From IMG/VR virus record IMGVR_UViG_2718218139_000007: a stretch of 64,000 nucleotides of DNA. One strand, given 5' to 3'. Under the pieces are notes generated by a model. It searched no databases. It was not told the origin of the DNA and saw only the letters and a list, made by a program, of their open reading frames with translations. This DNA is from a virus (lineage: Duplodnaviria > Heunggongvirae > Uroviricota > Caudoviricetes). Shown here one piece after another: positions 23,170 through 24,420 of this stretch (its first letter is position 1; the number at the start of each line of letters is the position of its first letter). The position numbers and the translations under genes are program-made.

Positions 23170-23454
23170 TATGTTTGATGACAAAAAATTAGCGCAAGAA
23201 GAAAAAATCACCTTGCGCTAATGCTCTGTCTCAGGTCACTAATCACACCTAACTCATTGATTAATTGTGACTCTAAATGTAGTGTTTTGTCGCGTTTTGC
23301 AGTATGTTATTTAATCTATTATATGAATAACATAATGATTTTTAATGTATTTTTGTAATTTACTCTCCTTCTGACATGGAAGTTGTTCGTTCAAAATCTT
23401 ATTAAATATCAAGTTGTTAAATCTGGTAAGTCATTATTGGTCAAAATAAAATCA
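23170..23454. other. Unrecombined attP-like region (sib-like hairpin, P-arm-like and P'-arm-like sequence) adjacent to the int remnant
   Basis: Strong resemblance to recalled phage lambda sib/attP flanks (TGACAAAAAATTAGCGCAAGAAG…CCTTGCGCTAATGCTCTG…, GTCAAAATAAAATCATTAT…TTTGTCCCACTCCC) but no lambda core GCTTTTTTATACTAA. Confidence 0.55.
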
Positions 23455-24420
23455 TTATCCGATTTCAATTTTGTCCCACTCCCGCTCGCGACTGTCCCTA
23501 TAATGCGCCGCCATTGAATCAGATTTATGTCCAAGAAGACGTTGTGCAAACTTGTAGCCAATCTGGTTCCGATATAGCCTCGCGGACAGACTACGTAGTT
23601 CATGAAATGTCGGTGGGTCTCCATCAAACGAGATCCCGGATGCATTTCGCGCCTTTGTTAAATACCGTGATACTGTGGCTGGAGAAAGTGGTTCGTGATA
23701 GGTTGATGCGATTATTGTTTCACTGCTGCTGGCCTCCCTGCATTTCTGTAGTGTATCAACCAGTGAGATGTCGAGTGCGTCAATGGTTAGAGCCAGCGGA
23801 ATGGCAATTTTGGCTCCTGTTTTACTCTGTCCAATGTGAAGATGACCATCGTTTATGTCTGACCACTTCATTCTGCACAAATCGCCCACTCTCTGCCCTG
23901 TAACGACAGCTAAATCCATTGACAGCCTCAGCCAGATGGGGAGGTGCTCAGCAGCATGGTAAATAGCGACATACTCATTAGCTGTCAGCCTTGAGCGCCT
24001 TACTTCTGACTTTGCTGCACGGGTTGTTGTTACTGGATTCGTTGCCACATGCCCCTCGGCTATTGCCCCTCGAAAAACGTCAACAAGGGTTGACCTGATT
24101 ACTCTTGCGGAAACCGCTTTACCTTCTGCGACGTAGGTGTTTAGCATTGCTGCCACCTCTTTCGTTGATATGTCAGTGAGCGGTTTGTCCGGCAATTTTC
24201 TTCGAATTGCCCTGATTTTGCTGGCGTAGTCGAGTAATGTTTTCGGCTTGCTCCCCCTCTAGCTGAGGATTGTTTCATATCGATCAAGCCACGTATGAAG
24301 AGTGATTGAGTCAGTGCCTTTAACCCTGTCCAGCAATGATTCGTGCCCACTTTCGCTGAAAAGCTCAATGTTGGTGTGAATGCTTCTGAAATTGCTACTC
24401 TTCTGTCTCTTCCCAGCCCG
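23455..24420 (-). pseudogene. int: Lambda-Int-like tyrosine integrase remnant (5'-truncated, internal amber stop)
   Basis: C-terminal 246-aa ORF ends …LLGHKSDSMAAHYRDSREREWDKIEIG like lambda Int; upstream in-frame sequence continues through a TAG codon and is cut off where the tfa-3' repeat begins. Confidence 0.8.

Follow-up and report, generated by a model that had tools for sequence, protein, structure and literature searches.

A fossil integration module among effector genes

The stretch of DNA examined here, 64,000 nucleotides of IMG/VR virus record IMGVR_UViG_2718218139_000007 (the window), carries a defective lambdoid prophage of an enteropathogenic or Shiga toxin-producing (EPEC/STEC) Escherichia coli strain. 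Between the effector gene nleA and the pair nleH1-2 and nleF, this prophage contains at 23181-24441 what is very likely the fossil integration module of another phage, a lambdoid phage of the HK022 family that had nleA as cargo of its b-region and the host gene yfaT as its integration target. The module comprises the sib processing site, a phage attachment site (attP) with both arms still joined, and a broken integrase gene (int), colinear with HK022 and in the HK022 order. By blastn, window 23179-24455 aligns with positions 188-1468 of HK022 sequence X51962 at 83.1% identity (E = 0); the annotation of X51962 in this interval gives sib at 190-239, attP at 243-469 and int at 463-1536. The same stretch is 68.4% identical to lambda. 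A chance resemblance to the HK022 or lambda module was considered and is ruled out by the alignments with E = 0. A first-pass annotation of this DNA had described a degraded lambda-Int-like module at 23170-24420. That label holds at the level of the family, but the nearest relative is HK022, and the module, which is indeed present there, runs on to 24441. Coordinates are collected in Table 1.

Table 1. Features of the module, of the surrounding effector island and of the inserted phage (window coordinates)
Feature	Position	Strand	Basis or remark
Tail-fibre gene 3' end with hairpin terminator, copy 1 (the prophage's real gene)	20162-20299	+	direct-repeat families D2, D3, D5
Tail-fibre 3' fragment, copy 2, left edge of nleA cassette	20937-21070	+	direct repeats D2/D3
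nleA, type III secretion system effector, cargo gene of the att module	21477-22799	-	open reading frame; annotated nleA in relatives
sib / tI hairpin, predicted retroregulator and terminator of int transcript	23181-23229	-	HK022 annotation transfer; RNA fold
attP, complete	23233-23458	+	HK022 attP annotation transfer, alignments, motif scan
Arm-type site P1 (presumed)	23233-23242		motif scan
IHF consensus at H1 position (presumed)	23250-23262		motif scan
Arm-type site P2 (presumed)	23264-23273		motif scan
Core (overlap 23372-23378)	23365-23385	+	identical to segment shared by attL and attR in strain 10159
Core-type site C' (presumed)	23377-23385		motif scan
IHF consensus at H' position (presumed)	23407-23419		motif scan
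Arm-type sites P'1-P'3 (presumed), whole span	23428-23458		motif scan
P'1 (presumed)	23428-23437		motif scan
P'3 (presumed)	23449-23458		motif scan
int pseudogene, HK022 family, residues ~26-356	23455-24441	-	tblastn, six-frame translation, Pfam, PGAP in relatives
Tail-fibre 3' fragment with terminator, copy 3, opens nleH-nleF cassette	24442-24582	+	direct repeats
nleH1-2	24612-25532		list of open reading frames; annotation of relative
nleF	25598-26167		list of open reading frames; annotation of relative
Second att scar: sib, P arm, lambda-type core, B', ~70 bp of ybhC-ybhB intergenic host DNA	26849-27126	+	
nleG	28324-28971		
espM1	29155-29745		
Variant of attB-in-PP_1	32722-32742		
Integrase (428 aa) of inserted Stx2-type phage	32782-34068		
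stx2A	47910-48867		
stx2B	48879-49148		

The sib segment is identical to the annotated HK022 sib at 49 of 50 positions and almost invariant in a three-way alignment with HK022 and lambda. Its RNA is predicted to fold into a hairpin followed by a U-run (minimum free energy -32 kcal/mol, z = -4.6). This conserved hairpin and U-run lie downstream of attP on the int strand, the arrangement expected of the retroregulatory hairpin, which we accordingly take sib to be on its predicted fold.

Downstream of the int stop codon, P' arm, core, P arm and sib follow one another unbroken, and the whole 226-bp HK022 attP annotation transfers onto the window. A motif scan with consensus sequences of the lambda att sites located what we take to be the arm-type sites P1, P2, P'1 and P'3, the core-type site C', and consensus sites for integration host factor (IHF) at the H1 and H' positions. 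In the three-way alignment P1, P2 and P'1-3 are conserved among the window, HK022 and lambda. The predicted layout is that of a lambda-type attP, with inverted core-type sites around a 7-bp overlap and sites for Int and IHF in both arms. No yfaT host DNA abuts the core, as it would at a prophage end. Since both arms are contiguous around one core and host DNA is absent, the site is an attP rather than an attL or attR, and it is structurally intact. The same arrangement, a P' arm followed by P-arm and sib-like sequence, had been proposed in the first-pass annotation, with the proviso that a single arm would make the site a true attL or attR; alignment and annotation transfer both place the two arms here. 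In the lambda record J02459, the feature 'int 4' (27814-27854) maps to the end of the int coding region, at window 23457-23497, and not to P'1-P'3. This feature is either offset or denotes something else, and the P' sites were placed by motif and alignment instead.

The core and its target in yfaT

The core reads CTCCTTC-TGACATG-GAAGTTG, with the overlap in the middle, and occurs only once within the window. It differs from the cores of both HK022 (ATCCTTT-AGGTGAA-TAAGTTG) and lambda (CAGCTTT-TTTATAC-TAAGTTG). A core matching it, which it had earlier been suggested to look for, was found split between the ends of a live prophage. Partial matches to the module in E. coli genomes form classes that have the core as their beginning or end, and strain 10159 (NZ_CP074991) carries a complete lambda-like prophage within yfaT (DUF1175), between gyrA-yfaA and the alpha-2-macroglobulin gene. 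The attL of this prophage reads ...CTTATGACATGGAAGTTGTAT / ...CAACAACTTATGACATGGAAGTTGTAT..., and its attR reads ...CTCCTTCTGACATGGAAGGACACC / ...ACTCTCCTTCTGACATGGAAGGACACC.... Joined together, the P half of attR and the P' half of attL rebuild the window core exactly. The two host halves rebuild an 80-nt attB. Of 5426 E. coli genomes, 5200 carry this attB unbroken within yfaT and about 180 carry it split, and the attP of the window thus has a matching attB in this gene. yfaT is a published prophage integration site (PMC3603311).

HK022-type prophages adjoin torS instead. Since HK022 Int and the Int of the live yfaT prophage share 97.8% identity, the change of target goes with the overlap and not with the enzyme; for integrases of the lambda family the overlap needs only to match between the two partners. 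By sequence, then, the module is of the HK022 family with a yfaT-specific core.

The integrase remnant

Three lesions were found in int. Homology to HK022 Int begins only at residue ~26, some 25 N-terminal codons and the start codon being gone; the frame shifts after residue ~48 (residues 48-51, ~24373-24381); and at 24259-24261 an amber codon (CTA on the + strand) takes the place of residue 89 of HK022 Int. The frame is then open through residues 90-355, within which a 246-aa open reading frame (ORF), 23455-24195 on the - strand, begins at an internal TTG and matches Pfam Phage_integrase PF00589 (E = 1e-38). The 246-aa ORF, the upstream amber codon and a 5' end cut by a repeat had all been recognized in the first-pass annotation and agree with our results, but the frameshift was missing from its list. 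The repeat in question is a copy of a tail-fibre gene 3' end: at 24441/24442 the 5' side of int is joined to the last ~75 nt of a tail-fibre gene and its terminator. The junction reads GGGTC/AGTGTGTAGTAAGACC, with microhomology of ~1 nt at most.

When the frame is repaired, the translation contains the catalytic domain, the central SAM-like domain and about half of the Arm-DNA-bind domain (Pfam). Of the last of these, PF09003, only profile positions 33-69 of 74 are left, in another frame than the rest. The catalytic residues R-K-H-R-H-Y are all present in the alignment, as read by eye, and presumably correspond to R212, K235, H308, R311, H333 and Y342 in the numbering of lambda Int. An uninterrupted frame of ~356 codons is absent, and the gene belongs to the family by descent rather than by function. 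PGAP annotation likewise gives a frameshifted, stop-containing, N-terminally incomplete tyrosine recombinase pseudogene in the five relatives that were opened. Lambda and four HK022-like Ints agree at 231 positions, and at 16 of these the remnant carries a replacement, against 0-4 in leave-one-out controls for the HK022-like proteins; a seventeenth listed change, M1T, is an alignment artefact and was discounted. The module contains no xis.

Because of the 5' truncation, the frameshift and the amber codon, the integrase is dead. All three lesions are identical in the copies of the window, E2348/69, 2013C-3264, O26:H11 11368 and an O157:H7 strain, and so are older than the spread of the island.

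The host prophage and the arrival of the module with nleA

Over window 19542-27529 the sequence shares 99.3% identity with PP6, a prophage of E. coli O127:H6 E2348/69, and the 1.5 kb around the module is 99.9% identical in E2348/69, O55:H7 strains and others. At its left end PP6 has ompW, its own 376-aa integrase and an excisionase, and at its right end an ompW remnant. The 121-bp ompW att site used by prophages of this type has been determined experimentally (Nakamura et al. 2021, PMC8112680). Judged from the E2348/69 counterpart, the integration system of the host prophage is therefore of the ompW type and not the HK022-like module, which makes "captured fossil", the term used in the first-pass annotation, the correct one: the lesions of a dead int and a foreign, yfaT-type attP stand inside an ompW prophage. 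That the module is not at a prophage end and did not integrate the current element, as the same annotation had stated, agrees with the absence of host flank and with the ompW ends of the counterpart. Both att arms are joined at an intact junction in 453 of 5426 complete E. coli genomes.

The cargo of live yfaT prophages points to the origin of the module. In strain 10159 and in the O111 strain 2010C-3053, the attR end of the yfaT prophage consists of tail fibre, nleG, an insertion sequence (IS) remnant, nleA, sib, P arm and core. Window 21380-23382 is 97.9% identical to this end (nleA, sib and P arm). In the circular phage the nleA-sib-P arm block would be followed by the P' arm and int, as it is in the window; the fossil would therefore represent the b-region, att and int of a yfaT-type nleA phage in its unintegrated form, or else the internal junction of a tandem lysogen. 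The att module thus appears to have arrived together with nleA. In the genome of O84:H7 strain Trh52 (NZ_CP047600, 1-3300), the remnant of a prophage at att-lambda, next to ybhB, retains part of an integrase gene and a DUF1076 gene along with nleA and a lambda-type attR, and nleA is therefore found beside a lambda-type P arm as well as the yfaT type.

We propose that a whole stretch of the phage map, from tail fibre through nleA, sib and attP to int, was embedded in the effector locus of the ompW prophage. A cointegrate or tandem of the nleA phage and the resident prophage would have left attP unsplit, and an illegitimate deletion would then have removed the DNA between codon ~25 of int and the final ~75 nt of the following tail-fibre gene, producing the fusion of the int remnant (int') with the tail-fibre end in front of nleH and nleF. 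Such a cointegrate followed by deletion is the most likely route of capture.

Tail-fibre fragments and a second att scar

Three copies of a tail-fibre gene 3' end occur in the island, and each opens a separate cargo cassette. The first, which is annotated 'phage tail fiber C-terminal domain' in E2348/69 and 2013C-3264, and the third include a hairpin terminator. The second is 91% identical to the first over 127 nt and 90% identical to the end of the tail-fibre gene of the live yfaT prophage.

A second att scar lies 2.4 kb to the right of the module, after nleH, nleF and an IS256 remnant. Its core, GCTTTTTATACTAA, is one T short of the 15-bp lambda core and is followed by the B' side, with no P' arm. 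A P arm, a lambda core and a flank from the ybhB side together identify this scar, on its sequence, as a lambda-type attR with host flank and not as an attP. Such an attR at the end of the nleH-nleF cassette suggests that a prophage at att-lambda formerly had this cassette as its right end. Read in this way, the arrangement shows the island to be a stack of right ends from at least three lambdoid phages, each opened by a tail-fibre 3' fragment and closed by an att scar.

Between the first two tail-fibre copies lies a 180-aa ORF (20453-20995). It belongs to the form of the island found in the window and in E2348/69, whose annotation shows only partial hypothetical fragments here; the O157 and O26 islands have a DUF1076 pseudogene at this position instead.

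A change of allele at the core

Comparison of the window with the O157:H7 copy over 5.8 kb revealed an abrupt boundary at the core. There are 176 differences in 21174-23364 (8%) and 12 in 23365-27000 (0.3%), and the final difference of the divergent block falls at 23364, one base before the core. Fossil copies of different pathotypes are ~99.7% identical to the right of the core and 92.5% identical to the left. Among five copies, 15 variable columns lie in the 195 bp of sib and P arm, compared with 3 in the 1077 bp from the core through the P' arm and int'. The probability that such a boundary would hit a 21-bp site in 5.8 kb by chance is roughly 0.4%. Two cassette alleles (92.5% identical to each other) are thus joined to one int': allele A in the window and E2348/69, and allele B in O157, O26 11368 and JNE132847. 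Allele A is 97.7% identical to the attR ends of live yfaT prophages, compared with 92% for allele B. The structure of the two forms differs as well to the left of 21174, which puts the limits of the swapped segment at approximately the tail-fibre end on one side and the core on the other.

If a co-resident yfaT phage provided an HK022-type Int in trans, strands would be exchanged in the 7-bp overlap, and a second crossover in or near the conserved tail-fibre end would replace the whole nleA cassette. The mosaic boundary suggests that the attP was probably used in this manner, as a crossover point with Int in trans, at least once after its capture. The core would then be both a yfaT-type crossover site and the breakpoint between two histories. 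A stronger proposal, which we make only tentatively, is that the fossil attP still works in trans as an "attP-in-prophage" and shuttles nleA between the ompW prophage and live phages. Recombination of the fossil attP by the Int of a yfaT phage, together with homologous exchange at the tail-fibre end, would move the nleA cassette.

Weighing the alternatives

Several observations weigh against the interpretation given above. The left end of this prophage is outside the window, and the ompW assignment rests on the relative in E2348/69. The cointegrate-plus-deletion route is a reconstruction for which no intermediate was found. A search of 5.8 billion proteins gave no intact Int relative with more than 87% identity, the one match at 99% being the fossil ORF itself. 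Matches to attL and int in E. coli reach only ~84-86% (megablast classes), and the best match in the phage collection is 85.6%. As no intact Int is closer than 87%, the exact donor lineage is unsampled. No phage was found inserted in the fossil attP in a spread sampling for matches to the right half only, from which a class of fewer than ~8 genomes could escape. Finally, the sharp boundary at the core also fits homologous recombination with a yfaT attR, whose homology to the fossil ends 18 bp past the last difference.

This last possibility deserves the most attention. If the boundary came from homologous recombination or gene conversion with a co-resident yfaT attR, no Int would have been involved and the attP would be fully inert. 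Live attR ends are homologous to the fossil only as far as 23382, so a conversion tract would have to stop at or before the core in any case. From a search with the core junction, which matched 632 places in 519 records, some 100 genomes are estimated to carry a second P-arm-core copy beside the fossil, some of these copies on plasmids, and this would fit exchange by Int as well. The last difference, however, is only 18 bp from the end of this homology, and the minimal processing segment needed for RecA-dependent exchange is usually longer. Int makes its cuts precisely inside 23372-23378, and the live yfaT Ints have matching arm and core sites. Because only 18 bp of homology remain beyond the last difference and Int cuts there, we favor exchange by Int and regard the homologous route as somewhat unlikely, though a serious contender.

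The ancestor of the ompW prophage could itself have used the HK022-like module, later gained a second one and let the first decay in place, without any capture. Lambdoid phages do swap integration modules, and decay in place would lead to the same end state. This origin nevertheless seems improbable to us. The direct fusion of int' to a duplicated tail-fibre 3' end, at the head of a second cassette that itself ends in a lambda-type attR with a ybhB flank, points away from decay in place and toward the joining of right ends from several phages. It is also disfavored by live yfaT phages, which carry the nleA-sib-P arm block at 97.9% identity.

That the 246-codon ORF is a working, N-terminally shortened recombinase acting on the adjacent attP, for example in mobilizing the nleA cassette, is very improbable. 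Its catalytic domain is open with all six catalytic residues, only 2 positions vary among five copies of the 987-bp int', and gene callers predict a 230-aa product that belongs to a cluster of 309 members (P0005). The low variation is matched in non-coding DNA and in the genes to the right, which points to recent common descent rather than selection. The TTG start lies inside the core-binding domain (~residue 111), and the product would lack the arm-binding domain and half of the core-binding domain. Arm binding by lambda Int is required for recombination at attP. The 16 replacements at otherwise invariant positions are a further argument against function.

We give almost no credence to the possibility that the site is a true attL or attR and so marks an end of the current element or of a neighbor in tandem: int beside att-like arms has the look of a prophage left end and a genuine one-armed scar is present in the same island, but P arm, core and P' arm run on unbroken with the full-length HK022 attP, the core has no yfaT flank as real attL and attR sites do, and the element ends in ompW.

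Comparison with known systems

The module is 83% identical to HK022 (X51962, AF069308) at the nucleotide level and shares with it the arrangement and spacing of all elements from sib through both arms and the core to int, as well as the arm-type sites and the C' half-site AAGTTG; the Ints are 86% identical over comparable residues. It differs in the overlap, which is AGGTGAA in HK022 (target in the torS-torT region) and TGACATG in the window, hence yfaT, and in the absence of xis and the truncated, frameshifted and amber-containing int. The architecture is shared with lambda as well, with sib nearly identical and P1, P2 and P'1-3 recognizable, but identity is only 68% at the nucleotide and 71% at the amino acid level, and the core matches at 6 of 15 positions.

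The live yfaT prophages (10159, NZ_CP074991; O111 genomes including NC_013364) have the identical overlap and C' site. Their nleA-sib-P arm block is 97.9% identical to that of the window, and the last 58 bp are 100% identical in many O111 genomes. In contrast to the window, the two halves of their attP are separated, with a complete prophage lying between attL and attR, and their int is intact and only ~85% identical to the fossil int at the nucleotide level.

The attB-in-prophage sites of Nakamura et al. (2021, PMC8112680) resemble the module in being attachment-site sequences within a prophage and in their setting, defective ompW prophages with an effector locus at the right end. They are host-derived attB sites that receive incoming phages, whereas the site in the window is a phage attP with a dead integrase, at which no phage was inserted in the sampled genomes.

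The core junction search also matched the attP region at 11 places on plasmids. On the 66-kb plasmid pDEC5A-4 of O55:H7 strain DEC5A (NZ_CP038397), a copy of nleA-sib-attP-int' at ~3018-5767 is colinear with window 21400-24092 at 89% identity. It too has both att arms and a pseudogenized int, but its overlap is TGATATA, and it is IS21, not a tail-fibre fragment, that interrupts its int. Since this paralogue combines a complete attP with a broken int, the arrangement has been fossilized more than once. The P arm of the plasmid copy contains a short tandem repeat, ATGGGTTTTT.

Significance

The object itself is an ordinary degraded phage integration module, already marked as a pseudogene in public annotation. 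In the searchable literature we found no description of a complete yfaT-type HK022-family attP at this place, of its arrival with nleA, or of the base-precise switch of alleles. A text search of PMC8112680 found no mention of this int or attP, and literature under the locus tags ECs1813, Z6023 and E2348C_1443 yielded nothing relevant.

A much-studied effector locus (nleA, nleH and nleF) can thus be read as the stacked right ends of several lambdoid phages. This provides a lead on a question that Nakamura et al. left open, namely how att sequences and cassettes enter prophages, and the lambda-type attR with its host flank hints at how host att DNA does so. The switch of alleles suggests that dead integration modules may still direct cassette exchange when a related Int is present. 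Core-directed exchange of this kind would bear on how fast effectors are reshuffled between defective and live phages in EPEC and STEC. If the attP does work, it would be a route of effector mobilization complementary to the published attB-in-prophage route and, together with the lambda attR scar, would explain why effector loci and att sequences pile up at the right ends of prophages. In addition, an int with att-like arms in the middle of a prophage can mislead programs that call prophage boundaries.

Other features of the window

To the right of the second att scar, nleG and espM1 are followed by a variant of the attB-in-PP_1 of Nakamura et al. (GTCATGCAGTTAATGTGACGG), with 2 mismatches to the published 21 bp. 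The integrase and xisR of the inserted Stx2-type phage directly follow this variant (32782-34356), and stx2A and stx2B lie further to the right. The insertion of the Stx2-type phage is a prophage-in-prophage of the kind described by Nakamura et al. (2021, PMC8112680).

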